DNA of 15,906 bases from an uncultured bacterium (GCA_965372795.1 CBDVDR010000031.1:1-15906); one strand, 5' to 3'; shown: positions 1 to 15,906, counted from the stretch's first letter. Made by a program: numbers and translations. Notes: generated by a model not told the origin, from the letters alone.

Positions 1-69
1 AGATTAAGGCCAGATTTGATCTCAAAAGAAGAAACAACTCCAACAGAGAGGCCAGATTACTTTGGTTAA
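1..69 (+). CDS. Possible 3' end of an upstream gene (RLRPDLISKEETTPTERPDYFG*), truncated by the window
   Basis: Frame +1 is open from base 1 to TAA at 67-69 and overlaps the TTG start at 62, as in coupled genes. Frame +3 is also open to 74, so the frame is uncertain. Confidence 0.3.
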   Translation, partial: RLRPDLISKEETTPTERPDYFG

Positions 70-649
70 CGTAAGTCCAGAAAGAATATTTAGAGAATCA
101 AAAGAGAGATTTAGGACAAAACAAGAAAAATTGAATAAAATTAAAAATGATATGCTACAGAATATCCTAAATGAAAACTTGAAAAAAGAATTCTCAGAGA
201 GATTGAAAAACATTAATTTTACTAAGAAATTTAAATTAAATAGAATTGAAGAAAAAATAAAAATATTAAGAGATAAAAGGTTTGCGCATATTGATAGAGA
301 TTATATTACAAATTTAACTCTAGAAGATAGACAAATTCCACGTGAAATATTTGATAAATTGGAACCTATTTGTAATTTTGTTAATGAAAATTTCGATGCT
401 TTAACGATTGAAAAAATAAGAGGTAAAACCTTTTTTGAGTATAGTAATATTAACGGATCTCATCCACCTGGTATGGAAAAACGTAGTGACATAGAAATGA
501 TTTTGGATTTTATAGCAGAATCAGATGCACTTTTAAATATGCCTGAGAATGAACCAGATTATTGGCCCTATCAAAGAAAAAATTTATCTGAGAGCGATAT
601 TAATATTCTAAACGAATATAGAGAAAAGTTTAACCTACCTAAAGTTTAA
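62..649 (+). CDS. Hypothetical protein, putative HEPN-family (AbiU2-like) RNase domain
   Basis: 195-aa ORF with a TTG start and an AGAGG RBS-like motif about 10 nt upstream. Helical, charged sequence containing RDKRFAH (269-289), which fits the HEPN R-x4-6-H motif. DNA is visibly AT-richer than neighbouring genes. The family call rests on the motif only. Confidence 0.5.
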   Translation: MVNVSPERIFRESKERFRTKQEKLNKIKNDMLQNILNENLKKEFSERLKNINFTKKFKLNRIEEKIKILRDKRFAHIDRDYITNLTLEDRQIPREIFDKLEPICNFVNENFDALTIEKIRGKTFFEYSNINGSHPPGMEKRSDIEMILDFIAESDALLNMPENEPDYWPYQRKNLSESDINILNEYREKFNLPKV

Positions 650-668: not shown

Positions 669-1205
669 TTACTTTTCCAGTTCAACACCCAGGGCATCAG
701 CTAACCTATTAATATAATTAAAATATGCTGTGACCTGGACGGTGTCATGAATCATATTCTCTGACATTCCTTTTTCAATCAGGAAATCAACATACGCCTG
801 ATCGACATTATATGCCTCTTTGGTGATTTTTTCGGCATAGCCTAAAATCAGTTTATCAAGATCAGAAATATCGGCTGTTTTATAATTTTTTATCAGTTGA
901 GCCTTAAGGCTGATATCAACATTACCAAGAGAATGCAACGCATTCCAGTGATGAGTAATTCAGTAATGACATTGATTGATACTTGAAACCACAACCGCAA
1001 TCATTTCCTGCTGGTCGCGAGTGATGGCTGAATTAGTAGACATGACTGCCCGATAAAATTGTAAATGAGCATCCATAGCATCAGGATTCGGTCCGGCAAT
1101 TCGAACAACATTTGCCGGAGTTTTGGATGGACCGCCAAACTGTTCGTATAGTTTTTTAAGTTTGTCAGACGCATCTTCGTATTTGATATATTTTATAAAA
1201 GCCAA
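669..1205 (-). CDS. Selenocysteine-containing AhpD/carboxymuconolactone-decarboxylase-like peroxidase-related protein (178 aa, Sec82, CxxU motif)
   Basis: Minus strand reads ATC AAT CAA TGT CAT TAC TGA ATT ACT CAT CAC TGG AAT GCG TTG CAT = INQCHY-U-ITHHWNALH, joining ORFs 960..1205 and 669..938 in frame. EMIAVVVSSINQCHYUITHH matches the AhpD core E-x10/11-CxxC-x2/3-H. The C-terminal AYFNYINRLADALGVE is typical of the same family. TTG start with AGAAAGG upstream; ends TAA TAG. Confidence 0.9.
921..959 (-). promoter_or_regulatory. Bacterial SECIS-like element immediately 3' of the UGA (960-962)
   Basis: mRNA after UGA: AUUAC-UCAUCACU-GGAAUGC-GUU-GCAUUCU-CUUG-GUAAU. Lower stem AUUAC/GUAAU, upper 7-bp stem GGAAUGC/GCAUUCU, and an apical loop beginning GU 20 nt after the UGA. 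This fits the general bacterial SECIS model. Confidence 0.8.
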
Positions 1206-1276
1206 AAGTGTACCTTTCTATTTTTATGATCTTAAAGCTAAACTACGATATGATCAGAATAACATAGTTAAAGAGG

Positions 1277-2476
1277 TTATGCCTCTTTTTTTACGCCTGA
1301 TAAAAAATCATCAAGGCGATTGGTGTAGTCGGTGATTTCTGCCATCTCTTCATCAGATGGAATTAACCGTGCCCGATAGTTTTCCTCGAATACTTTGAAA
1401 CGCATCCCCGATAACCGATCCGCTACCAATTTGATTCCTTCACCGCCCCAGCCGTATGATCCGAAGACCGCGGCTTTTTTACCGGTATAGGAAACGGTAT
1501 TTAACAGACTCAGAATATTCCAGACCGGAGGCACGCAGTCGCCATTAAAGGTTGGTGCACCAAAAAGAAGCACCGCAGATTTTTCGATATGCTCCCGAGC
1601 TATATCGGTTTCCACATCGGCAGCATCTATCAAAGAAACGTTGTAACCTTTATCAGTTAAGTGAGCTTCAATTTTATTTGCAATTTTTAAAGTGTTGCCG
1701 TAAGCAGAAGCATAAAAAATTGTAATGCCTTTCGGATCAACTTTATCTGATGACCATTCTTTGTATTTGTCTATAACAGTGCGAGGGTTATTTCTAAATA
1801 AAGGTCCATGCGAAGTGGCAATCAGCTTGATCTCAAAATCATCAAGTTTGGTCATGTTTTTTCTGATAAACGGGGCAAAGGGGCGCATGATTGAATCAAA
1901 GTAGTAGAAAAGTTCATAGTCAATGTCATGGGGGGATTCATCGGCATAGATAGAATCAAAGGCAACATGAGCGGCAAAGCCGTCACATGAAAAGAGGATG
2001 TTATCCTCTTGAAGAAATTCCATCATGGTATCGGGCCAGTGCATGTAGGGAGTGGTTTTGAAGACAAGTTTTTTCCCGCCCAGATCAAGCTCGAAATTAT
2101 CTTTGATGCCTTCAAGGTCGATTTCCATATTGATCGTATTTTTAACAAAGGGAAGAGCACCCGCCGAACAGATAACTTTGATATCCGGATTATTTTTAAG
2201 AAGGGTTATCATCGAGCCGCTGTGATCAGGTTCAGTATGGTTGCAGATTAAATAATCAATCTTTTCGATTGGAACAATTTCATTAATGTTATTAAAAAAT
2301 TCATCGGTGAATTCTTCTTTAACAGTATCAATCAAGGCTGTTTTGTTTTTACCTTTGATAAGATAGGCGTTGTAGGTGGTGCCATGGTTGGTTTTTACAA
2401 CAATGTCAAAAATTTTCAGATCCGGATCTTTAACGCCGACCCAGTAAACATTATCAGCTAATTTAATAGAAGCCAT
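1277..2476 (-). CDS. fprA: Flavodiiron protein (FprA/A-type flavoprotein; O2/NO reductase), metallo-beta-lactamase-like domain plus flavodoxin domain
   Basis: GTTYNAYLI, diiron ligand motifs NHTEPDH, HWPD, SCDGF and SHG; flavodoxin motifs YASAYGNT, GAPTFN and FGSYGWGGEG; 399 aa; GGAG RBS upstream. Confidence 0.95.
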   Translation of the reverse strand: MASIKLADNVYWVGVKDPDLKIFDIVVKTNHGTTYNAYLIKGKNKTALIDTVKEEFTDEFFNNINEIVPIEKIDYLICNHTEPDHSGSMITLLKNNPDIKVICSAGALPFVKNTINMEIDLEGIKDNFELDLGGKKLVFKTTPYMHWPDTMMEFLQEDNILFSCDGFAAHVAFDSIYADESPHDIDYELFYYFDSIMRPFAPFIRKNMTKLDDFEIKLIATSHGPLFRNNPRTVIDKYKEWSSDKVDPKGITIFYASAYGNTLKIANKIEAHLTDKGYNVSLIDAADVETDIAREHIEKSAVLLFGAPTFNGDCVPPVWNILSLLNTVSYTGKKAAVFGSYGWGGEGIKLVADRLSGMRFKVFEENYRARLIPSDEEMAEITDYTNRLDDFLSGVKKEA

Positions 2477-3719: not shown

Positions 3720-3843
3720 CGTCAATCGAGAATAAATGGAGATAATAATCGGTCTTATTTCATTAATAAATAGAAAGCGTTTGCAGAATCAGAATTATCG
3801 CATTATTTTATCAGTCTTAAGAATAGGAGTTACTGCTTCGTTA

Positions 3844-6417
3844 ATGAATTTGTCAAAATTACTACTTTTTGTTTTGGTTTTTCAAGGTTTCGCTATCCCC
3901 TCACATAGTAGAGACGTTTTACCAATTCGGGCTACCGAGATTCCCGGCAATCCGGCGTATTGTATTGTTGCTCATACTGTCGGCAAGATTAATTTTGCCG
4001 TACAAAATAATGGCACTTTTGGGAATTCGTCAGGGCGAAGGGCTACAGATTGTCTAACCGGAGACGAAGTTTCTTTTGGTGCTGAATATCCTGTCGATCT
4101 TGATGTAGAGCATCTCTATTATTCATCTCTTTGGGTCGGGGCGGTTATGGGAAACGATACCGTTGTTTCAACCGGACTTGATGGGTGGGCTGGCGATGGC
4201 CGTGAATTTCATCCCCAAGAATCACCCAAAGGTGATATGGTTTATAGATCTATAGTAAATCCTGATGCTCCCGAATTTGATGGAGCTGTATCCGAAGAAG
4301 ATTATATAGCAACTTATACTGACACTCTTAGAGGTGTCTCAAAAGATTTCTTCTACTCCCGTCCTCATAAACCGCTTTATTTACATATTAAGCAAAAAAG
4401 CTATGCCTGGTCTTACCCATATGCTGAAGACATAATTATAGTCGATCTGGAAATAACTAATATCGGCGTTCAAAATTTACATAATGTTTATCTGGGGCTT
4501 TATGTTGACTCTGATATTGGCTTTAACGGCGGGTATTGGCGTGATGATATATGCGGGTTTATTAGAACTGATCTGTTTGAAACTGAATGCGGATTTATTG
4601 AGGATACCGTTAATATTGCCTGGACTGCTGATAATGATGGTGATCCAATAAATGGTAAGTTTATACTTAAACCCGGGCTAGCAAATCCAGCCCAAATTAT
4701 TCAACAAAAATCTGCTCCGCATGCCTTTGGAACTCGAATTTTACAAACTCCTGATGAAGAAGGCAGACTTTCATATAATTGGTGGGTTTCCAATTATGAT
4801 ACCAAATATGATTTTGGTCCGCAGAGTATAGCAAAATCTCGTGATTTTCGAACCGGTGGAACAGGTACACCGGAAGGTGACAAAAACAAGTATTTTTTGA
4901 TGAGCAATAATGAGATTGATTATGATCAGGCAAAAATTTCTGAATTATCAAGCCTGGATCGAGCCTGGCTTACTCCTGATAGATATGTTGCCATTCGTAT
5001 TGGCAGAGGAGCCAATAATCAACATTTAACCTCTTTTGGCCCATTCAATATAGAAACTACTGAAACAGTCCCCTTTACATTTGCTTTCTTTGGAGCAGAA
5101 TCGATTCATCATATACCCGGTAATGGCGGGTTTCTATATTGGCGAACTGAGGACTTTTACGAAGGACTGGATTTTACTGATTTAATTGAAAATTCTCGTT
5201 GGGCTTCATGGATTTACGACAATCCGGGCGTTGATACGGATGGAGATGGTTATTTTGGGAAATACCATGTCTGTGTTAAAGAATCGACCTTTATCAGAAA
5301 TGAATGGGTTGCATCGGATGCTGACACTACTTTTTACGAAGGGGATGGCGTGCCTGACTTCAGAGGTGCCGCCCCGCCACCGGCGCCCTTCTTTATTGTA
5401 ACTCCTGAAGTTAGCAGCTTGAGAATTAGATTTAATGGACACTACTCAGAACGTACCCGAGATTTTCTAACCGGTAAGATTGATTTTGAAGGGTATAATA
5501 TTTATATGGCAAGAGATGAACGGGTTTCATCGTTTGCATTGATAACTTCAAATGATATTGAAAATTATAATAAGTATGTCTGGAAGCCTTATAATTTCCG
5601 GGTCGGTAAATATGAGTTATTTGATCAACCATATACCAAGCAGGAGCTTACTTGTTTGTATGGTGATTCTTGCAATGATTTAGAATTTAACCCGATTTTA
5701 TATGATGTCGCCCACCCTTATCAAATGCCGGGTTTTCCTGATTCATTATTTTATTTCGACTCTCACGGCAGTAACTCTGATAGAATTGGAGGAAATTCTC
5801 CGATTCAAAAAGTGTATCCTGATGCTCTTCCGGTACCTTTAAAAGCTGATCTTGATACGCTTGATGAAAGTTTTTTCACCGAGGAAGGGTATTTAAAATA
5901 TTATGAATATGAAACTGTAATAGAAAATCTGCTCCCGACCGTACCATATTGGATTTCAGTTACAGCATTTGATACCGGTTCACCTCAATCTGATCTCGAC
6001 GCCTTGGAAACTTCAAAAACAATTTCCGCTCAAATGGTTTATCCTTTAAGTTCCTCAAATCAAATAACAGGGGAGAACTTAAAAGCTTACATATATCCGA
6101 ATCCATACCGAATTGATGCTGAATATCGACAAAATGGCTTTGAAGGTCGAAATGAAGACAGCTGGCCAGATTACAGGGTCAGACAACTTCATTTTGCAAA
6201 CCTTCCGGCAAAATGCACAATTAGTATCTTCTCGCTTGATGGTGATTTAATTAAAGAATTTGATCATGATATGGATCCGTCTGACCCTAACCATGGCCAC
6301 CATGACTGGGATATGATTTCAAGAAACACTCAGGAAATTAAATCAGGGTTGTATTATTGGACAGTTGAAGATGATAAAGGGAAAGTTCAAATAGGTAAAC
6401 TTGCTATTATCATGTAA
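3844..6417 (+). CDS. Large secreted protein (about 857 aa) with a C-terminal T9SS-sorting/FlgD-Ig-like domain; function unknown
   Basis: Start moved from 3736 to ATG 3844 because AGGAG lies at 3825-3829 and the product then begins with a signal peptide (MNLSKLLLFVLVFQGFAIPSHS). Asp-rich Ca-binding-like loops (DNDGD, DTDGDG). C-terminus YIYPNPY...FSLDGDLIK...WDMISRN...SGLYYW...GKLAIIM resembles a secretion CTD. Confidence 0.8.
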   Translation: MNLSKLLLFVLVFQGFAIPSHSRDVLPIRATEIPGNPAYCIVAHTVGKINFAVQNNGTFGNSSGRRATDCLTGDEVSFGAEYPVDLDVEHLYYSSLWVGAVMGNDTVVSTGLDGWAGDGREFHPQESPKGDMVYRSIVNPDAPEFDGAVSEEDYIATYTDTLRGVSKDFFYSRPHKPLYLHIKQKSYAWSYPYAEDIIIVDLEITNIGVQNLHNVYLGLYVDSDIGFNGGYWRDDICGFIRTDLFETECGFIEDTVNIAWTADNDGDPINGKFILKPGLANPAQIIQQKSAPHAFGTRILQTPDEEGRLSYNWWVSNYDTKYDFGPQSIAKSRDFRTGGTGTPEGDKNKYFLMSNNEIDYDQAKISELSSLDRAWLTPDRYVAIRIGRGANNQHLTSFGPFNIETTETVPFTFAFFGAESIHHIPGNGGFLYWRTEDFYEGLDFTDLIENSRWASWIYDNPGVDTDGDGYFGKYHVCVKESTFIRNEWVASDADTTFYEGDGVPDFRGAAPPPAPFFIVTPEVSSLRIRFNGHYSERTRDFLTGKIDFEGYNIYMARDERVSSFALITSNDIENYNKYVWKPYNFRVGKYELFDQPYTKQELTCLYGDSCNDLEFNPILYDVAHPYQMPGFPDSLFYFDSHGSNSDRIGGNSPIQKVYPDALPVPLKADLDTLDESFFTEEGYLKYYEYETVIENLLPTVPYWISVTAFDTGSPQSDLDALETSKTISAQMVYPLSSSNQITGENLKAYIYPNPYRIDAEYRQNGFEGRNEDSWPDYRVRQLHFANLPAKCTISIFSLDGDLIKEFDHDMDPSDPNHGHHDWDMISRNTQEIKSGLYYWTVEDDKGKVQIGKLAIIM

Positions 6418-6503
6418 TCAACATTTTTAACGAATTAAAAATACACAAACAAATTTCAAATTTACATTAAAAGAATGCCTAATTTTCTAAACAGGGAGTA
6501 ATG

Positions 6504-6530
6504 ATGCTTCTTTTGTGAAAAAGGATGCAT
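6504..6530 (+). terminator. Stem-loop with GNRA (GUGA) tetraloop downstream of the 3844..6417 gene; terminator or 3' stabiliser
   Basis: ATGC-TTCTTTT-GTGA-AAAAGGA-T-GCAT gives 11 bp with one bulge; no clear U-tract follows. Confidence 0.3.
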
Positions 6531-6690
6531 ATCAAAGCCATCTTCTGTGATTAATTCTAAATTTTATAAAAAAAGAATTTTTTTAATGCTCTACTATTAA
6601 TAGGGGTTGCATCTTGACAGAGTTCATTATATTATTGTAGCTTAAACAAATAGCCAAGGAAATTAAAAATAATCTATAGTATCGACAAAC

Positions 6691-6706
6691 TGTTCAAATT
6701 TTGGAA
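6691..6706. promoter_or_regulatory. Second, imperfect copy of the TGTTCAAATTTTGAACA operator-like motif
   Basis: TGTTCAAATTTTGGAA ends 8 nt upstream of the -35 hexamer at 6715. Confidence 0.45.
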
Positions 6707-6714
6707 TTTTCCTA

Positions 6715-6743
6715 TTGACAATTCATGAATCTATACTTATATT
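6715..6743 (+). promoter_or_regulatory. sigma70-type promoter for the cohesin/dockerin gene cluster
   Basis: TTGACA (6715-6720)-N17-TATATT (6738-6743), with AT-rich sequence upstream. A weaker candidate TTGCAT-N17-TATTAT lies at 6607-6635. Confidence 0.65.
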
Positions 6744-7056
6744 TTCAGCGGATGATAGGTGAGTCTTTCAAGAAAAACTGTTAAGTTCATATAGAACAAT
6801 AACAACTCCGGTTCTAAACAAAGTCAGATACTTCACTCTTATAGCGCCGATGGGGGTCGCGTAAGAAATACATGCTTGGTGCTAAAACAAAACGTTTGTT
6901 ATTTTTTAAAAAAAATGAAGCAAGAAGTAAACAGCTAGCGACTTAAGTAGTTCGCCTTAAGCTTGTGTGTAGACAATCAATTGGTAAGGAATTTGCTTAT
7001 TGAGGTTTGGTAAGGGAAGAATTACAAGTACCTATGATTACAACCAGGAGGAATTT

Positions 7057-8160
7057 ATGGCCTTTATGAGAGGGCTTCCAAAACCTGCCGGCTATCTGGC
7101 TATTTTTCTGATTTTATCAATAATTTTTCTGGCTACTCCCAAAAGCCAGGCACAATTTTCAGACCTTAGGGTGACCGTAGGTGACACTACTGCTTACTCC
7201 AATGAAACTAATACCGTCATATCAGTTTATTTAGATAATTTCCGCCATGAAATAGCGGGCTTTAATATTTGGATACAACTCGACAATCCTGACATTATAA
7301 AATTCCAGGTTGATTCAGCCATAGTTGTTGACAGCACCTATTACAGATGTACTGAGTGGGATGGCGTCAATTGCTTAACTTATGTAATAAGTACCCCGCT
7401 TGATTTTGACTCGATAGGAGTTATTACTGATACTGTTCTGGTTGGTAACCATGATGTTACCGGTACATTAATAGAAGATTGGGAATATGTTGATTCTCGC
7501 TCTCTTAGCGGACAGGGAGCTGATATTAATATTGCAGCTTTTGCAAATATGCCCGCTCCTCCTGCTACTCCGGGAATCCTGCCACAGCAGGGTGGGTTGC
7601 TGGTTAAAATTTTAGCTGACGTTTATAATATTCCGGATACAGCTATTGAACGAACCGTAAATATGATGATTCAATATGAAATTGTTGATCACTTTAATTT
7701 TTCTCTTCCTGATGGTTCCTCGATCGGTATTTTATATAATGAAATCACAGACACTTCTTGTTGGACATGTAATATATGGTGTGGTTCAGTTTGTTGTGAT
7801 TTAGTGAAAGTATCCGAACCCCCATTTGGAGATTATGCTAATTGTGATTCTACCGATATATCTTTGGAACTATCCCCTTATGTTGATACCGATAAAATTA
7901 TTATTATAGATGGATCGTTAACCGTTTTAGTAACGCCTGAATGTATTTGCGGAGATATAAACGGCGATGAATACCATCTTTCCGACATCTCCGATTTGAC
8001 CTATATGGTTGATTATATTTTTGGCGGCGGACCTGAACCGGCAGAATTTGTTTGTGCGGATGTTAATTCCAGTGGTGGAACTTTGATAAATATTTCAGAT
8101 CTTACTTACCTTGTAAATTATTTATTTACCGGCGGTGATGACCCCGTCTGTACTTTTTAG
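7057..8160 (+). CDS. Secreted protein (367 aa): cohesin-like domain with Cys-rich insertions and a C-terminal dockerin-like domain
   Basis: Start moved to ATG 7057 (AGGAGG 5 nt upstream; signal peptide ending SQA-Q). Cohesin-like opening strands VTVGDTTAY...VISVYLDN...IAGFNIWIQLD. Duplicated Ca-loop/helix GDINGD..SDISDLTYMVDYIF and ADVNSSG..INISDLTYLVNYLF at about 7942-8151. Confidence 0.8.
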   Translation: MAFMRGLPKPAGYLAIFLILSIIFLATPKSQAQFSDLRVTVGDTTAYSNETNTVISVYLDNFRHEIAGFNIWIQLDNPDIIKFQVDSAIVVDSTYYRCTEWDGVNCLTYVISTPLDFDSIGVITDTVLVGNHDVTGTLIEDWEYVDSRSLSGQGADINIAAFANMPAPPATPGILPQQGGLLVKILADVYNIPDTAIERTVNMMIQYEIVDHFNFSLPDGSSIGILYNEITDTSCWTCNIWCGSVCCDLVKVSEPPFGDYANCDSTDISLELSPYVDTDKIIIIDGSLTVLVTPECICGDINGDEYHLSDISDLTYMVDYIFGGGPEPAEFVCADVNSSGGTLINISDLTYLVNYLFTGGDDPVCTF

Positions 8161-8440: not shown

Positions 8441-11023
8441 ATGAAACGTATTGCGTTTATCCTAACATCTTTGTTAGTTCTTTCCTTTGGGTTCGCATAT
8501 GGTCAATCAGATATTTCTGTTGATCATGTTGATGGACTCGCCAGCCCTACACAGGTAGCCGCTGGCCAAACAGTAACCTTCCATATCCGTTATACCCAAA
8601 ACGGTCCGGCTGCAGTTACTGGTTCTACTAACGGTTTTAAAGTTTACTCACCAGACGGTGCAGTATTTTCACCTATCACATATGCTGAAACAGGTGCAAT
8701 TACTCCTGACATGTATGACGGTGGTACTTTCTTAACTCCGTTTAGTATCGATGGTATCGGTGCTGACACTATTGGTTATGGTGGATTTAAATTATTTAAA
8801 CCAGGTCTTGAGCCTGGATTTGACGAAATAGTCCTTACCATTTCTACCAGTGTTGAACCCAATACTTATGATGGATTGTCTCTCTGTATAGACAGTGCAT
8901 TCTATCCTCCAGGTGGAGCCTGGGTATGGTCCTCGGCCCCGGATGTAAATCCGACTTGGACCAACGGTGGTTGTTTTGAAATTTATACAATCCCGAACCT
9001 TCCTCCGACATTTGGACCAGATGCTGATCCAGCATTTGGTACTCCTGTTTGTGAAGAAATTGGTAACCAAGGTCATTGTGATGTAGCTATGAAGCAGTTT
9101 ACTGCTGTAGTTGCTCTGAACGATGATGAGCCTGGTTTACCTATTTCTTACAGCTTAGTATCTGGTATTGGTGCTATTGATGCCGGTACAGGTATGTGGA
9201 GCTACGCTCCTTCACAGGCTGACGTTGGCACACATGTTGTCGTCGTTCAAGCTTGTGACGCTCTTAACGAATGCACAGGTCCTAATGCTTCTTATGATGA
9301 TTGCACATCAAGTGTAACATTCACAAATGAAGCTCCTTCTTTCACCGCTGGCTGTGATTCTTACACACCAGTAGGTAAAGGTAATCCTGTATCAGTCGAT
9401 GTTGACGCTGTTGACGGCGACTGTGATGGAATTACATTCTCAATCGTTGATGTTGTTCCTACACCAACTGGCGTAGTCAGCATTGATGCGAACACTGGCG
9501 TAGTCACTTTTGCTACTGTAGAAGCTGACGCCGCTGCTGCTCCTGGAACACCTTACACAATTACTGTTGCCGTATCTGATGGTTTAGCTACTGTTGAATG
9601 CGACCTCACTATTGATGTACTGTTCACCGAACCTTATCAGGTTCGTATTGAAAAAACCCACCTGACTATTCAGGGCGGTCACGAATCAGTCGACATTACT
9701 GTCGAAGCCGGTTCCGAGACTATGGGTGGATTCGATCTTTTAATCGCTTACGATGCTAGCGCCCTGACATTTGTCACCGCTCTCGAAGGCGACATTTACT
9801 CCGATTGCGGTTGGGAATATTTCACCTACCGTTTCGGTGCAACTGGTAACTGCTCCGGTGGTTGCCCAAGTGGTCTGTTAAGAATCGTTGGTATTGCTGA
9901 AACAAATAACGGTGCCTATCACCCAACATGTTTCTTTGGCGAATCCAAACCTTTCACACTGGCCTCTTTAGATTTCTTAGTCACAGACGATCGTACTTTG
10001 GAATGTCAGTATGTCCCAATCCGTTTCTTATGGATGGACTGTGCTGATAACACTATCGCCTCAGAATCTGGTGATACTCTGTTTATTTCCCGTTTTGTTT
10101 ATGACTATGATCGTGGCGGTGAACTTACAAATGTAGCTTCATATCCTACCTATACAGGTGCACAGGATGCTGACTGCTTTGTAGGCGATGCTGCTAAAGT
10201 TCCGGTTCGTTTCATTGATTTCTTTAATGGTGGAATTGACATTGCTTGTGCCGATGAACTCGATGCTCGCGGTGACGTCAACCTGAATGAAATCGGTTAC
10301 GAAATTGCTGATGCTGTTCTGTTCTCCAACTACTTTGTATATGGTTTAGGCGTATTTTGGAATATTCCTGGACAGGTAGCTGCAACAGACGTTAATGCCG
10401 ACGGTCTATCCTTGTCAGTTGCTGACTTGGTATATTTGACTCGCGTGGTTATTGGCGATGCTCAGCCTTATCCGAAACTGAATCCAGAAGTTGCCAGCTA
10501 CTCAGTTGACAATGGTACTGTCCGTGTAAACAGTGAAATGGGCGCAGCCTCTATCATCGTTTCCGGTAACACCGTTCCTACACTGATGGCCGACAACATG
10601 GAAATGCGCTATAACTTTGACGGAACAAACACCCGTATACTCGTTTACAGCACAGAAGCTAACGCTAAATTCAGCGGTGACTTCTTGAACGTAAACGGCG
10701 ATATCATTGATATCGAAATGGCTACTTACGAAGGTACCCCGGTTGCCGCAAAAGTTATTCCAGCTAATTACAGCCTCAAACAGAACTATCCTAACCCGTT
10801 CAACCCTTCAACCACAGTAGCCTTTGATATGGCTAATGCTGGCAAATACACTCTTACCGTTTACAACGTAACCGGTCAGAAGGTTGCCGAATTTGCTGAC
10901 TTCTCAGAAGCCGGTACTGTAACTGTTGATTGGGATGCTTCGATGATGGCATCAGGTATTTACTTCTATAAGTTAAATGCTGATAACTTCACCGATACCA
11001 AGAAGATGGTACTGTTGAAATAA
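8441..11023 (+). CDS. Secreted modular surface protein (860 aa): beta-sandwich, two Ig/cadherin-like domains, cohesin-like, dockerin-like and T9SS-type CTD
   Basis: AGGAG RBS; signal peptide ending AYG-Q; Ig-like segments (NLPPTF...YSLVSG.GAIDAGTG.WSYAP; NEAPSF...SIDANTGVVTF); cohesin-like MGGFDLLIAYDASALTF; dockerin-like RGDVNLN..EIADAVLFSNYF and TDVNADG..SVADLVYL (about 10268-10456); CTD YSLKQNYPNPFNPST...SGIYFYKL...TKKMVLLK. Confidence 0.88.
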   Translation: MKRIAFILTSLLVLSFGFAYGQSDISVDHVDGLASPTQVAAGQTVTFHIRYTQNGPAAVTGSTNGFKVYSPDGAVFSPITYAETGAITPDMYDGGTFLTPFSIDGIGADTIGYGGFKLFKPGLEPGFDEIVLTISTSVEPNTYDGLSLCIDSAFYPPGGAWVWSSAPDVNPTWTNGGCFEIYTIPNLPPTFGPDADPAFGTPVCEEIGNQGHCDVAMKQFTAVVALNDDEPGLPISYSLVSGIGAIDAGTGMWSYAPSQADVGTHVVVVQACDALNECTGPNASYDDCTSSVTFTNEAPSFTAGCDSYTPVGKGNPVSVDVDAVDGDCDGITFSIVDVVPTPTGVVSIDANTGVVTFATVEADAAAAPGTPYTITVAVSDGLATVECDLTIDVLFTEPYQVRIEKTHLTIQGGHESVDITVEAGSETMGGFDLLIAYDASALTFVTALEGDIYSDCGWEYFTYRFGATGNCSGGCPSGLLRIVGIAETNNGAYHPTCFFGESKPFTLASLDFLVTDDRTLECQYVPIRFLWMDCADNTIASESGDTLFISRFVYDYDRGGELTNVASYPTYTGAQDADCFVGDAAKVPVRFIDFFNGGIDIACADELDARGDVNLNEIGYEIADAVLFSNYFVYGLGVFWNIPGQVAATDVNADGLSLSVADLVYLTRVVIGDAQPYPKLNPEVASYSVDNGTVRVNSEMGAASIIVSGNTVPTLMADNMEMRYNFDGTNTRILVYSTEANAKFSGDFLNVNGDIIDIEMATYEGTPVAAKVIPANYSLKQNYPNPFNPSTTVAFDMANAGKYTLTVYNVTGQKVAEFADFSEAGTVTVDWDASMMASGIYFYKLNADNFTDTKKMVLLK

Positions 11024-11038
11024 GGCTTTTTGCTTTTG

Positions 11039-11074
11039 TTCTCCGGAAAGGTTAATTCCTTTCCGGGGGATTTA
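11039..11074 (+). terminator. Strong stem-loop, probable intrinsic terminator or 3' stabiliser
   Basis: TTCTCCGGAAAGG-TTAATT-CCTTTCCGGGGGA (13 bp including G-U pairs) followed by TTTA, 15 nt after the stop. Confidence 0.7.
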
Positions 11075-11462
11075 TAAGGAGGCGAGGAAGTAGAAAAATA
11101 TTGGTAATGTTTTGAGAAGAAGACCAAAAATAAAGAGAAGAATGGATTTTTTGAGATGACCATTATAAGCAAAGTATTTGTTAATGCAAACTTGAGCCGG
11201 TCATCTTTTTGCATTTATATGAGAGATCAAATAGTTCAAATCAATGAAATATGCAACTTAATGCAGCTTTGCATAAGCTTGCCACGGAAGGTAAAAGTCT
11301 TACTCTCACCCTCACAAAATACATTCCACAAAATTAATGAGGAATTTCGATTAAAAAATTGATAACTTTGATTTGCTAAAGCCGTTAAATCAGCTACCTG
11401 ATTGATAGATAGGCTGTTACGGAAAAGAAAAAAGCAAGGGGATTAGAAGATTTATTGAGATT

Positions 11463-11487
11463 ATTTTGCCACAGGGATTGGCAAAAT
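11463..11487. promoter_or_regulatory. Inverted repeat ATTTTGCCA-N7-TGGCAAAAT, with a third half-site at 11551-11560
   Basis: Perfect 9-bp arms in the long intergenic region upstream of the 11823 gene; TTGGCAAAAT occurs at both 11478 and 11551. Confidence 0.4.
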
Positions 11488-11603
11488 TTCTCTATTGATA
11501 TTAAAAATCGGTCTGGTTATTGCTCAGACTATGGTTAGAGAAAAGTATATTTGGCAAAATATGGTTTTTAGCCAAAAAAAAGAGGTTTAGATAGATATAG
11601 AGT

Positions 11604-11804
11604 ATGCAGAGAATTACGAACATAGACATTTCAAGCGGATTAACAGGACGTTTTCTGAGCGGTTCAAAAGAAATCGGTAAATCGTATCTGCAAAAATTAA
11701 GGGCTTATGAGGGAAAAGATATCCTTTTAGATGATAATAAGATAGATGCTCAAATTGATAGATTTTTTGAATTAGATATAAATTCTGTGGTAGTTGATAA
11801 TTGA
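11604..11804 (+). CDS. Small hypothetical protein (66 aa), uncertain
   Basis: ATG-started ORF with protein-like composition that ends just before the RBS of the next gene; no convincing RBS and no recognisable motif. Confidence 0.3.
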   Translation: MQRITNIDISSGLTGRFLSGSKEIGKSYLQKLRAYEGKDILLDDNKIDAQIDRFFELDINSVVVDN

Positions 11805-11822
11805 GAAATTTTGGAGGTATAG

Positions 11823-14519
11823 ATGAAATATATTAAAATTCCCCTAATAATAATGGCGGTGTTGCTGTTTTATAGCGGGGTCTCATATTCACAAATAACA
11901 AATGAATATAAGCAATGTAGTCAAGTTTCTCATTCAACAGTTGACGAGGTTGAAATCGTAAGTGTTGAAGCTAAGCCGGAAGATACTCTTTGGATGCCGT
12001 TTTCTATTAAGAACTTTGATAATCCCAATACTGATTATGAAGAATTTGTAACTGCCTTTATTATTCAGATAACTTATAATGATACTTTTCTTACTCCAAT
12101 TTTAACTCCCGGCGATCCAAATGGTGATATAACTGTGGTTGAAGCAGGCCGTCTTAAAACAGCAATTAATAAATTACCTGAATCAGAACGTGACGGTAGA
12201 TTAGTAGCTCAAATTTCTCAAAATCCAATAGATGATGGTGCTTTGATTATTCAGTTTAACCTTGCTCCTCTTGAGTTTTACGAACCGCCAAAAGTGACAG
12301 CTGGTTCAGGAGTGGTATTTCTGCTTCCTTTCTTAGTTGACCCTAACATTCCTGATGGTAAAACTTTATTTTTTGATTTTCATGAAATTAATGAATGTAT
12401 TGTTATCGGGTCGGACATATTCTGTGCAAATTGCCGTTTATCTGAATTTGGTGTCAGAACTATAGATTCAACATTTTTTAATACGGATACAGGTTACGAA
12501 GATACGGTCTTTTTTGATGTTCCGGTTTACCCGAGTTTGACGACTGGTACTTATACTGCCAACGATTTTCCTCCTCCGGCGATTAACCAATTCTACCCTG
12601 AAAATCAAACAATTTCTACAGGCGGTGTAACTCTGTTCTGGGATGTACTCAATGTCGATTCAATCAATATTACCGGACCGAATCTGGTTTATGAAACTAT
12701 TTCAGCCTTCAACTCGGCAACTTCTGTGATTCCACCGCAAACCAACGGAACCTATACCTATACTTTAAAAGCCTTTGGCTTTGATTCCAAGGATTCATCA
12801 ATTGCAACAACTTATATTATTTTTGATGCGGACGATACCGGAGATCCTGATCCTGATCCGACCAACGCAGCCCCAGTAATTAGCGTAGCCTCAGCCTTTA
12901 CCGTAGAAGAAGGAGCCCCGCTAAGTTTTTCTGTTTCCGCATCGGACTCAGATGGAGATAACATAACTTTATCAGCCCAGGCGCCACTTCCTAATAATTC
13001 GAATTTTACAACTGTCATGGGTGTTGGATCTGTGACTGGAACCTTTAGCTGGACACCTGATATTGATCAAAATGGTTTTTATAACATAACTTTTTCCGCA
13101 ACCGATGGTTCGAAGACAACAAATTCAACGGTGGGAATAACAGTTACGAAAATTCAGGGTGACCGTATTTTCTCAACCTCGTCACTTGGGCAGGCTCCGG
13201 TTGGCGGTTTAAAAGGTAAGAAGAATGTGTTGTTGCCGATTGATCTGGTAACATCGCAGACCGTTTACGGTATTCAGTTTGATTTTGTTTATGATTATCA
13301 ATATTTCGAAATTGATTCATTTGTAGTAACTGATCGTACTCCTGATTATGTCATCTATGATAACATTGGACAAACACCGGGGATTATCAGAGTTGTTACT
13401 TTTGGTTTGGCAAATGAACCGATTGTAACTGATAATTCAACAGCAATTATGTATGCTGCTATGTCGATTGACTCGACAGCTCCTCCGGGGGATTATCCGG
13501 TATTTATTCAGGATGGCTGGGAATCAATCAATCCGGATCCATCGTTCCCGTCGCTTGAATTACTTGTTGATGATGCTATTATTCAGGTAGATCTACCCGG
13601 TGATGTCAACCTTGACAAGAGGATTGACGTTGCTGATTTGGTTAGTATGGTAGCCTACATCATTGGTGAATTTGGTTTACCCGAAAGACAGTTTGATGTC
13701 TCCGATGTAATTTATAACGACACAGTTGATGTCTTTGATTTAGTTGGCATAATAAATCTATTATATGGTATTCCAATTGAATCAGGCGGCACCGGTCAGA
13801 GTTTTGCAACCGGGCTTGCAACTGTTGAGCTTGATTATTCAGATATTTTGATTGGTCAGACCGATAAATTGGTTGTGAAATCTGATCTTCCGGTTGAAAT
13901 CGGGGGAGTGCAGCTTGAAATTCTGTACGATCCATCCACAGTCGAACTTGGAAAACCGGAAACAGCCTCGGATGCCAGCAATCTTACTATGAATTATAAA
14001 GATAATGGTTATGGTAAAATGGTAGTGTTGATGTATTTTAACAACCCATTTGATGAAGATGCTTTAGTCAGCGCCGGTACTGCCGATTTGATTAATGTAC
14101 CGATTATTGCCCATAATGATATTGAAGCGGGAAATGAAGCCCAGATTAAACTCTCGCGGGTTCTGCTGTCAACGGGTGAAGCCGCAACCGTAAGCGTCGA
14201 AGGATTTACGGCAGCTCTTCCGGAAACTTTTGCCTTGAAGCAGAATTATCCTAATCCATTCAATCCGATAACAACGATTGAATTTTCACTTGGGACCGGG
14301 AGTAGCAGTTCTGGTTTGAAAGATGTTACTCTGGATATTTATAATGTTTTAGGGCAACATGTAAAAGCTTTGCTCAACGATGCTTTGCCTCCGGGTAATT
14401 ATAACGTTGAATGGGATGCTACTAATGAGAGCGGTATAAAAACTGCCACGGGTATTTATTTGTATCGATTAAAAGTTGGCTCGGAAATACAAACCAAGAA
14501 GATGCTGCTTCTTAAATAA
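11823..14519 (+). CDS. Secreted scaffoldin-like protein (898 aa): cohesin-like, Ig-like, DP linker, cadherin/He_PIG-like Ig, cohesin-like, dockerin-like, cohesin-like and FlgD-Ig/T9SS-type CTD
   Basis: GGAGG RBS; signal peptide ending SYS-Q; three cohesin-like strand motifs (VTAFIIQITYNDTFL, VYGIQFDFVYDYQYF, IGGVQLEILYDPSTVEL); dockerin-like PGDVNLDKRIDVADLVSMVAYII and SDVIYNDTVDVFDLVGIINLL (about 13596-13769); CTD FALKQNYPNPFNP...WDATNESG...ATGIYLYRL...TKKMLLLK. Confidence 0.88.
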   Translation: MKYIKIPLIIMAVLLFYSGVSYSQITNEYKQCSQVSHSTVDEVEIVSVEAKPEDTLWMPFSIKNFDNPNTDYEEFVTAFIIQITYNDTFLTPILTPGDPNGDITVVEAGRLKTAINKLPESERDGRLVAQISQNPIDDGALIIQFNLAPLEFYEPPKVTAGSGVVFLLPFLVDPNIPDGKTLFFDFHEINECIVIGSDIFCANCRLSEFGVRTIDSTFFNTDTGYEDTVFFDVPVYPSLTTGTYTANDFPPPAINQFYPENQTISTGGVTLFWDVLNVDSINITGPNLVYETISAFNSATSVIPPQTNGTYTYTLKAFGFDSKDSSIATTYIIFDADDTGDPDPDPTNAAPVISVASAFTVEEGAPLSFSVSASDSDGDNITLSAQAPLPNNSNFTTVMGVGSVTGTFSWTPDIDQNGFYNITFSATDGSKTTNSTVGITVTKIQGDRIFSTSSLGQAPVGGLKGKKNVLLPIDLVTSQTVYGIQFDFVYDYQYFEIDSFVVTDRTPDYVIYDNIGQTPGIIRVVTFGLANEPIVTDNSTAIMYAAMSIDSTAPPGDYPVFIQDGWESINPDPSFPSLELLVDDAIIQVDLPGDVNLDKRIDVADLVSMVAYIIGEFGLPERQFDVSDVIYNDTVDVFDLVGIINLLYGIPIESGGTGQSFATGLATVELDYSDILIGQTDKLVVKSDLPVEIGGVQLEILYDPSTVELGKPETASDASNLTMNYKDNGYGKMVVLMYFNNPFDEDALVSAGTADLINVPIIAHNDIEAGNEAQIKLSRVLLSTGEAATVSVEGFTAALPETFALKQNYPNPFNPITTIEFSLGTGSSSSGLKDVTLDIYNVLGQHVKALLNDALPPGNYNVEWDATNESGIKTATGIYLYRLKVGSEIQTKKMLLLK

Positions 14520-14540
14520 GAGTTGGAGTAGATTTTAAAT

Positions 14541-15906
14541 ATGAAAAAAATAACTATAGTTTTATCTATATTATTTATTGCTTTTTTAGGAATTAATGCA
14601 ACTGCTCAAACATTTCCTCCTGTTCTGAATACTATCGGAATCCAGGGTAGTACTGAAAATATTAATCTAAATTTTGTTGTAAGTGCGACCGATGCTGATA
14701 TAACCACGCCGACTTTAACCACTTCAACTTTACCGAGTGGTGCGAGTTTCTTAGATAACGGTGATGGCACCGGGGCGTTTAATTGGACGCCGACTTTTTT
14801 GCAGTCAGGAATTTACAATGTAACTTTTTATGCAAATGATGTTGTAACTGCAGACATTGATTCCGAAATTGTTGTAATTACTATTAATGAAGCCGGCAAT
14901 CAGACTCCGATCCTGACTTCAATTGGTGCACAATCAACTACCGAAAATATTCAATTAACATTTGGTATAACATCATCTGATATTGAAAGCACTCCGGTTC
15001 TGACGACTTCCGCTTTACCGGGAACAGCATCTTTTATAGACAATGGTGACGGCAGTGGATCATTTGACTGGACCCCGACCTTTTTAGAATCCGGCAGTTA
15101 TGATATAACCTTTACTGCAACCGATGATTCAACATCTTTTGTTAGTGAGATCGTAACGATCACAGTTAATGAAGCCGGCAATCAGACTCCGATCCTGACT
15201 TCAATCGGTGCTCAAGCAACTACCGAAAACGTACAATTAACATTTGGTATCAGTTCATCTGATATCGAGAGTACTCCGGTTCTGACCACTTCCGCTTTAC
15301 CGGGAACAGCATCTTTTATAGACAACGGTGATGGCTCTGGATCATTTGACTGGACGCCGACCTTCTTGGAATCCGGCACATTTAATGTGACTTTCTTTGC
15401 TACGGACGACTCTTTATCTGTAGTTAGTGAGATCGTAACGATCACAGTTAATGAAGCCGGCAACCAGACTCCGATCCTGACTTCTATCGGTGCTCAAGCA
15501 ACTACAGAAAATATTCAATTAACATTTGGTATAACATCATCTGATATTGAAAGCACTCCGGTTCTGACGACTTCCGCTTTACCGGGAACAGCATCTTTTA
15601 TAGACAATGGTGACGGCAGTGGATCATTTGACTGGACGCCGACCTTTTTGGAATCCGGCACTTATGATATAACTTTTACTGCAACCGATGATTCAACCGT
15701 TTTTGTTAGTGAGATCGTAACGATCACAGTTAATGAAGCCGGCAATCAGACTCCGATCCTGACTTCAATTGGTGCACAATCAACTACCGAAAATATTCAA
15801 TTAACATTTGGTATAACATCATCTGATATTGAAAGCACTCCGGTTCTGACGACTTCCGCTTTACCGGGAACAGCATCTTTTATAGACAATGGTGACGGCA
15901 GTGGAT
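14541..15906 (+). CDS. N-terminal part of a giant secreted tandem Ig-like (cadherin/He_PIG-type) repeat protein, probable adhesin or surface filament; 3'-truncated by the window
   Basis: Absent from the ORF track because there is no stop inside the window. ATG 14541 lies 21 nt after the previous stop, with GGAG upstream. It reads MKKITIVLSILFIAFLGINATA-QTFPPVLNTIG..., then repeats of NEAGNQTPILTSIGAQ.TTEN.QLTFGI.SSDIESTPVLTTSALPGTASFIDNGDGSGSFDWTPTFLESG. Confidence 0.92.
   Translation, partial: MKKITIVLSILFIAFLGINATAQTFPPVLNTIGIQGSTENINLNFVVSATDADITTPTLTTSTLPSGASFLDNGDGTGAFNWTPTFLQSGIYNVTFYANDVVTADIDSEIVVITINEAGNQTPILTSIGAQSTTENIQLTFGITSSDIESTPVLTTSALPGTASFIDNGDGSGSFDWTPTFLESGSYDITFTATDDSTSFVSEIVTITVNEAGNQTPILTSIGAQATTENVQLTFGISSSDIESTPVLTTSALPGTASFIDNGDGSGSFDWTPTFLESGTFNVTFFATDDSLSVVSEIVTITVNEAGNQTPILTSIGAQATTENIQLTFGITSSDIESTPVLTTSALPGTASFIDNGDGSGSFDWTPTFLESGTYDITFTATDDSTVFVSEIVTITVNEAGNQTPILTSIGAQSTTENIQLTFGITSSDIESTPVLTTSALPGTASFIDNGDGSG
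14886..15906 (+). repeat. 282-nt (94-aa) intragenic tandem repeat, at least 3.6 near-identical units
   Basis: Units begin AATGAAGCCGGCAA at 14886, 15168, 15450 and 15732. A more diverged first domain precedes them (about 14607-14885). Confidence 0.95.

Follow-up and report, generated by a model that had tools for sequence, protein, structure and literature searches.

An AhpD-like reading frame split at an in-frame TGA very probably encodes a selenoprotein in an uncultured, most likely zixibacterial, genome

Two short open reading frames (ORFs) lie on the minus strand near one end of a 15,906-nucleotide stretch of DNA from an uncultured bacterium (the whole stretch is called the window below). 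The question raised by this locus is whether the two ORFs are two genes, the remains of a disrupted one, or a single gene in which a UGA codon is read as selenocysteine (Sec). As listed in Table 1, positions 669-1205 of the minus strand form one frame of 178 codons, and its sole break is the TGA at 960-962. What separates the ORFs is this TGA (962-960), followed by seven codons for amino acids (959-939: ATT ACT CAT CAC TGG AAT GCG). A preliminary description of the locus had given the same arrangement, and its coordinates were correct. Translation also agreed with its statement that reading through the TGA gives a full-size protein: with TGA as U, 178 residues were obtained, with U82 within NQCHY-U-ITHH.

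Table 1. Location of the features described. Positions without a prefix are those of the window.
Feature	Position	Strand	Basis
Predicted AhpD-like (TIGR01926) selenoprotein gene, complete, 178 residues	669..1205	-	TTG start 1205-1203, TAA stop 671-669
In-frame TGA, read as putative selenocysteine U82, second redox residue of C79-H-Y-U82	960..962	-	Translation, orthologue column, CxxC alignment
Upstream ORF, 81 aa, TTG start	960..1205	-	ORF listing
Downstream ORF, 89 aa, TTG start	669..938	-	ORF listing
Putative Shine-Dalgarno-like GAAAGG, 7 nt 5' of the TTG start	1213..1218	-	Inferred by reading the sequence
Core SECIS hairpin GGAAUGC-GUU-GCAUUCU, 7 pairs, 3-nt loop beginning with G	930..946	-	Folding, covariation
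Possible extension of the SECIS by a lower stem, with an internal loop and 4 more pairs	924..952	-	MFE structure of 921-962
Flavodiiron protein, 399 residues, metallo-beta-lactamase-like ODP and flavodoxin domains	1277..2476	-	Pfam ODP 1.8e-24, Flavodoxin_1 1e-14
195-aa ORF, convergent with the selenoprotein gene	62-649	+	HEPN AbiU2 25.3 bits, just below the 26.8 cut-off
Second TIGR01926 AhpD-like selenoprotein (predicted), 179 aa, GCVHUTASH	G000:C19:20063-20587 (L041 1498-2037)	-	119.4 bits
selD, itself Sec-containing, SCAGUASK near the N-terminus	G000:C4:204174-205094 (L019 1435-2523)		

The TTG at 1205-1203 is the predicted start of the long frame. An in-frame TAG is located five codons 5' of it, and 12 of the 15 orthologues have their ATG-GCx start aligned with it; of the other three, two begin at an ATG that lies one or two codons further 5', and the third has CTG. 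The orthologues span residues 1-177 of the read-through protein. The TTG at 938-936, listed as the start of the downstream ORF, lies in the loop and 3' arm of the putative SECIS hairpin and is an internal Leu codon in all of the aligned orthologues. The preliminary description had stated that there is no ribosome-binding site before this TTG. With a GGAA a few bases 5' of the codon, this is only weakly testable; the place of the TTG inside the hairpin and its use as an internal Leu codon are more informative. The reading of the two ORFs as two separate genes was rejected.

The two halves, of 81 and 89 residues, were found as separate entries in a collection of 15 billion proteins, whose entries may stem from annotation by the depositor or from gene calling within the collection. 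With C in place of U, the read-through form was absent from the same collection. The suspicion that the gene has been recorded in two pieces is thus upheld, since each half is entered as a protein of its own and no single full-length protein is. Homologues in the databases have a similar appearance: in a word-based search, 12 of 15 were fragments that had 97-110 residues and spanned 42-50% of the query. Three full-length homologues had CHYW (P0004), CHYC (P0005) and CHYR (P0006) at the Sec site, and the W in P0004 is most likely the result of gene calling that, on a short contig, went over to a code with TGA as Trp. Gene-finding software routinely splits selenoproteins of this well-known kind. 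The fragments and the W-containing entry indicate that pipelines without Sec-aware calling undercount the TIGR01926 family and fill databases with pseudo-proteins.

By its sequence, the read-through protein is a member of the TIGR01926 family ("peroxidase-related enzyme") of the CMD/AhpD superfamily. It scored 117.3 bits in NCBIfam against a cut-off of 81.8, with residues 4-175 aligned to positions 3-174 of the 178-position profile, and the same gene scored 109.3 bits with this model in a six-frame search of the genome. Pfam CMD (PF02627) was matched at 3.9e-12. The model of canonical AhpD, TIGR00777, gave 16.7 bits against a cut-off of 191.95 and covered residues 55-94 only, so that a role in the reduction of AhpC would be an analogy and not a matter of membership. 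The model NF041238 (AhpD_rel_CFYUT) gave 67.7 bits against a cut-off of 175, with profile positions 151-337 of 357 matched.

An all-helical AhpD-like fold is predicted for the product. A profile of 16 orthologues matched five solved structures of the AhpD-like kind, with values between 4.9e-38 and 3.5e-26 and alignments of 143 to 166 profile positions; the values for 2pfx, 3c1l and 6k40 were 4.9e-38, 1.6e-35 and 1.5e-32, respectively, and the other two structures were 2oyo and 2prr. CHYU was aligned with the CxxC of 2pfx, 3c1l and 6k40, with the upstream Glu and the downstream His kept, and the TGA was found, as proposed earlier, on the second Cys of the AhpD redox motif. E67, C79, H80, Y81, U82 and H86 were invariant in the 16-sequence orthologue alignment. 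The spacing of these residues (E67, +12 to C79, +2 to Y81, +1 to U82 and +4 to H86) is that of the AhpD proton relay, which is given as Glu118/Cys130/His132/Cys133/His137 in Mycobacterium tuberculosis AhpD and as Glu36/Cys48/Tyr50/Cys51/His55 in PA0269 (PMC3141380).

The TGA was also conserved among relatives. In a six-frame search of 40 related genomes, 17 strong matches (E <= 2e-47) were found in 16 genomes, each with exactly one TGA. No match was found by this search in 20 of the 40 genomes, including the one genome of the same genus, and the gene is therefore patchy in its distribution. The TGA stood in the same CHYU column in the window and in all 16 of the fetched orthologues. A query of a species-genome collection with the single protein returned no relatives, and a scan of this collection driven by the alignment returned 573, of which the best 80 were kept, a best-scoring and not a random sample. 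CxxU was present in 80/80 of these best 80 of 573 relatives (77 by regular expression and 3 by eye), and their labels included Zixiibacteriota, Ignavibacteria, Calditrichaeota, Planctomycetota, Gemmatimonadota, Acidobacteriota, Chloroflexota, Cloacimonadota and Firmicutes. An even sample of the phylum, 121 genomes in all, gave 35 TIGR01926 matches above the cut-off, 30 with one TGA and 5 with none.

Residues encoded 3' of the TGA were strongly conserved as well. Ten residues beyond position 150 were invariant (H153, D154, Q157, Y161, Y164, N166, A169, D170, L172 and G173), which argues that the C-terminus is not dead. It had been anticipated that homologues would have Cys or TGA at position 82 with conservation on both sides. 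This is what was observed, with TGA in the orthologues, Cys in 2pfx, 3c1l, 6k40 and P0005, and conserved residues on both flanks.

A candidate SECIS element was found directly after the TGA. The hairpin begins 13 nt after the UGA and its loop 20 nt after it; the 17-nt core folded at -6.1 kcal/mol (z -4.7), and the 42 nt from the UGA folded at -9.3 kcal/mol. The model of the bacterial SECIS (bSECIS) in the Fig. 2 legend of PMC13188914 has an apical loop of 3-9 nt, an upper stem of 4-16 bp, G in the first two loop positions, 16-37 nt from the UGA to the loop, and an MFE of -7.5 kcal/mol or lower. With its GUU loop, 7-bp stem, 20-nt spacing and -9.3 kcal/mol the hairpin agrees with this model, although the bare core, at -6.1 kcal/mol, misses the -7.5 limit. 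The hairpin of the window is the weakest of its clade. A scan of the window with Rfam gave no match at the gathering thresholds, and Rfam may not hold a fitting bacterial SECIS family.

Covariation was determined for 13 sequences of the clade of the window, and the four orthologues of family f2, whose hairpin at this place is of another form, were left out. In these 13 sequences, 97.8% of the cells were paired, compared with 42-57% in controls with slid partners. Three of the seven stem pairs were changed on both sides (for example, A-U to C-G and U-A to C-G), and the covariation was 0.425, compared with 0.187 in shuffles, none of which (0/500) was as high. The compensatory changes also alter amino acids (N/T, H/R), so that co-variation of the protein and pairing of the RNA cannot be fully separated. 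Codon use in the hairpin gave a further measure: Ala+7 was always GCG and Leu+8 was always TTG (13/13 sequences), while upstream, 24 four- or six-fold positions used 4.0 codons on average and none of the 24 used a single codon. These frozen synonymous codons argue for a constraint at the RNA level.

Three versions of the SECIS for one Sec codon in one protein family were seen among the best 80 loci and the orthologues. Most of the other phyla had ACGGAGC-GGN-GCUCCGU at +11 to +27, starting 10 nt after the UGA. The clade of the window had the stem with the GUU triloop at +14 to +30, 3 nt further downstream, and this version was present in 14 of the 80 best loci. Family f2 had a third form of hairpin, with a loop of 5-6 nt and no early G. 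Such naturally occurring SECIS variants, with their compensatory changes, could serve to test recognition by SelB.

The genome (3.35 Mb in 69 contigs, 98.65% complete) was searched for the Sec machinery. A tRNA-Sec (selC) was detected at 68.9 bits (threshold 47) and was also called SeC by ARAGORN, with anticodon tca. selA and selB, at 513.6 and 323.6 bits, respectively, lie side by side on contig C19 and scored above their curated cut-offs, and selC is on the same contig. selD, located elsewhere, scored 389.3 bits, also above its cut-off. The search for selA, selB, selC and selD that the preliminary description had proposed therefore found all four. Release factor 2 (RF2) was detected at 508.4 bits against a cut-off of 370. 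No in-frame TGA was present in the seven other large ORFs of the window, and the sole tRNA found with a UCA anticodon was the tRNA-Sec.

Taken together, these results make us very confident, from the level of sequence, that 669-1205 is a single intact gene for an AhpD-like selenoprotein with UGA as Sec that was split by ORF calling. The table 11 frame does end at 960-962 and gene callers did record two fragments, as would be expected of a pseudogene, that is, a former CxxC AhpD-like gene with a nonsense mutation that yields an 81-residue stub if anything. However, the TGA is shared by 16/16 fetched orthologues and by 80/80 of the wider loci (the best 80 of 573), and it is followed by strongly conserved residues and a covarying hairpin in a genome with complete Sec machinery. 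A decaying gene would not keep the TGA, the C-terminus, the hairpin and the machinery, and the pseudogene is thus effectively refuted. An error of assembly or sequencing, with TGT or TGC (Cys) as the true codon, would have been easier to accept in a draft of 69 contigs such as this one if independent assemblies of many organisms did not have TGA in the same column and if the second paralogue of the same genome did not also have CxxU; we consider it extremely improbable. Next to no weight is given to a genome-wide reassignment of TGA to Trp or Gly (codes 4 and 25), in which position 82 would not be Sec. The homologue P0004, recorded with W (CHYW), presumably by a caller using such a code, is in its favor, but RF2 scored above its cut-off, the seven other large ORFs had no in-frame TGA, and no UCA-anticodon tRNA other than tRNA-Sec was found. 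Solved homologues have Cys at this position, which fits Sec rather than Trp or Gly.

With the locus read as a selenoprotein gene, UGA 960-962 would be decoded as Sec during translation. The hairpin 13 nt downstream is predicted to act as a bacterial SECIS that recruits SelB carrying Sec-tRNA(Sec), and this complex would outcompete RF2 at the UGA. The Sec-tRNA(Sec) would be made by SelA using selenophosphate from SelD, and all four components are encoded in the genome. The product would be a small all-helical thiol/selenol oxidoreductase with C79-x-x-U82 as its redox pair. By analogy with the biochemistry of AhpD, the selenolate of U82 may be the attacking nucleophile, which would reduce an oxidized partner (a peroxidase of the peroxiredoxin type) or a hydroperoxide directly; C79 would then resolve the intermediate as a selenenylsulfide, to be re-reduced by a cellular reductant. 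We infer, in this scheme, the actual incorporation of selenium, the substrate, the reductant and the co-transcription discussed below.

The gene directly upstream encodes a flavodiiron protein and lies on the same strand at a distance of 71 nt. The protein gave 299 bits with the NCBIfam flavorubredoxin models, which is below the equivalog cut-off, and it is related to the flavorubredoxin NO reductases. In 9 of 96 related loci, all of them from the closest relatives, the orthologue was directly preceded by this flavodiiron gene; at least two pairs of these loci look like the same genome twice. No terminator-like site was detected in 400-2800 by a simple scan, which is weak evidence, and six promoter-like sites were found in this region compared with 8.8 in shuffles, a number to be read with the possibility that the organism uses other types of promoter. 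Judging from the arrangement of the two genes, they are probably co-transcribed. The adjacency of the flavodiiron gene suggests an oxidative-stress module of an anaerobe, and a role in defence against O2 or peroxide fits the gene context, though adjacency does not prove it.

On the other side of the gene, no NCBIfam match was found for the product of the convergent ORF, possibly a HEPN protein of the defence or toxin type. At 625-666, at the 19-nt-wide gap between the stop codon of the selenoprotein gene and the end of the convergent ORF, the 16-nt unit AAAGTTTAACCTACCT is repeated perfectly in tandem, in 2.6 copies. In the remainder of the window, 3736-8160 and 8441-15905 of the plus strand hold first two large ORFs (893 and 386 aa) without a Pfam family and then three large secreted proteins, in which Ig-like, cohesin and Por_Secre_tail (type IX secretion sorting) domains were matched. 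An alpha/beta-hydrolase-like protein is encoded there as well.

The genome holds further candidate selenoproteins. The second TIGR01926 gene, which also has a CxxU motif, is located about 2 kb from the tRNA-Sec. On the same strand, bshB1 (TIGR04001, 233.6 bits, cut-off 182.5) and an incomplete bshA directly precede it, and this arrangement hints that the paralogue is tied to bacillithiol redox chemistry. A link between a selenoprotein and bacillithiol is not known to have been described. The adjacency of bshB1 and the paralogue was looked for in a few other loci, with short flanks and with tblastn, which breaks at TGA, and no BshB1 match was found in them. A peroxiredoxin-family gene (AhpC-TSA, 99.4 bits) with one in-frame TGA is located at G000:C2:208214-208573, and a second peroxiredoxin gene (C2:207677-208057) adjoins it. 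The AhpC-TSA gene with the TGA probably encodes another selenoprotein and is a candidate redox partner; the genome gave 10 AhpC-TSA matches in all.

Homology and gene context point to a selenol-based reductase or peroxidase in oxidative defence as the likely enzymatic role of the product, a role reached by analogy. The gene could instead be a true Sec gene with another activity of the CMD/AhpD superfamily, acting on a small-molecule disulfide, on an organohalide (like the debrominase Bmp8) or in a pathway of low-molecular-weight thiols. TIGR01926 is named "peroxidase-related" with no defined substrate, the orthologue profile also matched Bmp8 (6ohi) at 1.4e-4, and the paralogue adjoins the bacillithiol genes bshB1 and bshA, all of which would be in keeping with such an activity. 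However, the full proton-relay set of AhpD is conserved, the neighbor is a flavodiiron protein of the O2- or NO-detoxifying kind, and the closest characterized homologue, DR1765 (6k40), is described in PMC8945050 as protecting against H2O2 in a CxxC-dependent manner. We regard the other activity as unlikely, with a chance that is small but well worth keeping in view, and a part in oxidative defence as the better reading.

The closest named relatives had the labels Candidatus Zixiibacteriota, candidate division GN15, FCB group, Ignavibacteriales and Calditrichaeota, and the lineage, as judged from these sequences, is most likely Zixibacteria. selA was above its cut-off in 116 of the 121 sampled genomes of the phylum, which makes the use of Sec a plain and pervasive trait of it. 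The preliminary description had suggested that Sec use might be unrecorded for this lineage. In the literature on Zixibacteria or Zixiibacteriota, we found no paper that discusses their selenoproteins, and supplements and the BSepDB tables (PMC13326102) may list them; the papers found treat the two topics separately, and in PMC8318568 Zixibacteria appear only in a list or table of reconstructed genomes. The suggestion is to be tempered, since the trait is present in almost every sampled genome of the phylum. A wider picture can be drawn, in which Sec is essentially obligatory in Zixibacteria and AhpD-like oxidoreductases contain Sec by default, the gene of the window and the flavodiiron gene form a two-gene unit of O2 and peroxide defence served by a clade-specific SECIS with a GUU triloop, and the paralogue next to bshA-bshB1 and the tRNA-Sec is tied to bacillithiol redox. 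As a whole, this picture is speculative, and we doubt that all of its parts will hold together.

The locus is not a new kind of system, and its family is already known. It is a clean case, with a UGA, a covarying SECIS and the full machinery together, of a Sec trait that is pervasive in an uncultured phylum. The preliminary description had likewise taken AhpD-like selenoproteins to be a known class, and CxxU members are indeed present in the literature (PMC1088965, PMC2398784, PMC13188914). They were first reported in 2005 from the Sargasso Sea metagenome, with 27 sequences of COG2128 (PMC1088965). In the Global Ocean Sampling data, AhpD-like selenoproteins were among the most abundant families, and AhpD-like 1 comprised 299 selenoproteins and 902 Cys homologues (PMC2398784). 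A 2026 review names an "AhpD-like protein, TIGR01926, CxxU" (PMC13188914). The protein of the window shares with this family (COG2128/TIGR01926) the model, the CxxU with Sec in second place, a length of about 178 residues and a bacterial-type SECIS that follows the UGA directly. It shows no essential difference from the family, being a Zixibacteria-like member with the SECIS version of its own clade.

Other relatives differ in more respects. The protein is homologous to DR1765 (PDB 6k40) over residues 8-173 (1.5e-32) and has the same E...CxxC...H layout, whereas DR1765 has Cys where the protein of the window is predicted to have Sec. The original paper on DR1765 is reportedly that of Zhao et al. 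(2020). According to a review, the DR1765 mutant of Deinococcus radiodurans is sensitive to H2O2, and complementation depends on the cysteines of the CxxC (PMC8945050). Compared with M. tuberculosis AhpD (TIGR00777), the protein agrees in its two-helix catalytic motif and in the spacing of the proton relay, but the motif is in a different part of the chain, Tyr takes the place of His132 as it does in PA0269, no ahpC is adjacent at the locus of the window, and the protein is not a member of TIGR00777. With NF041238 (AhpD_rel_CFYUT) and the CMD-domain CxxU selenoproteins it shares CxxU in a CMD/AhpD domain, but NF041238 is a different subfamily, and the protein of the window matches only the C-terminal half of its two-domain, 357-position model.
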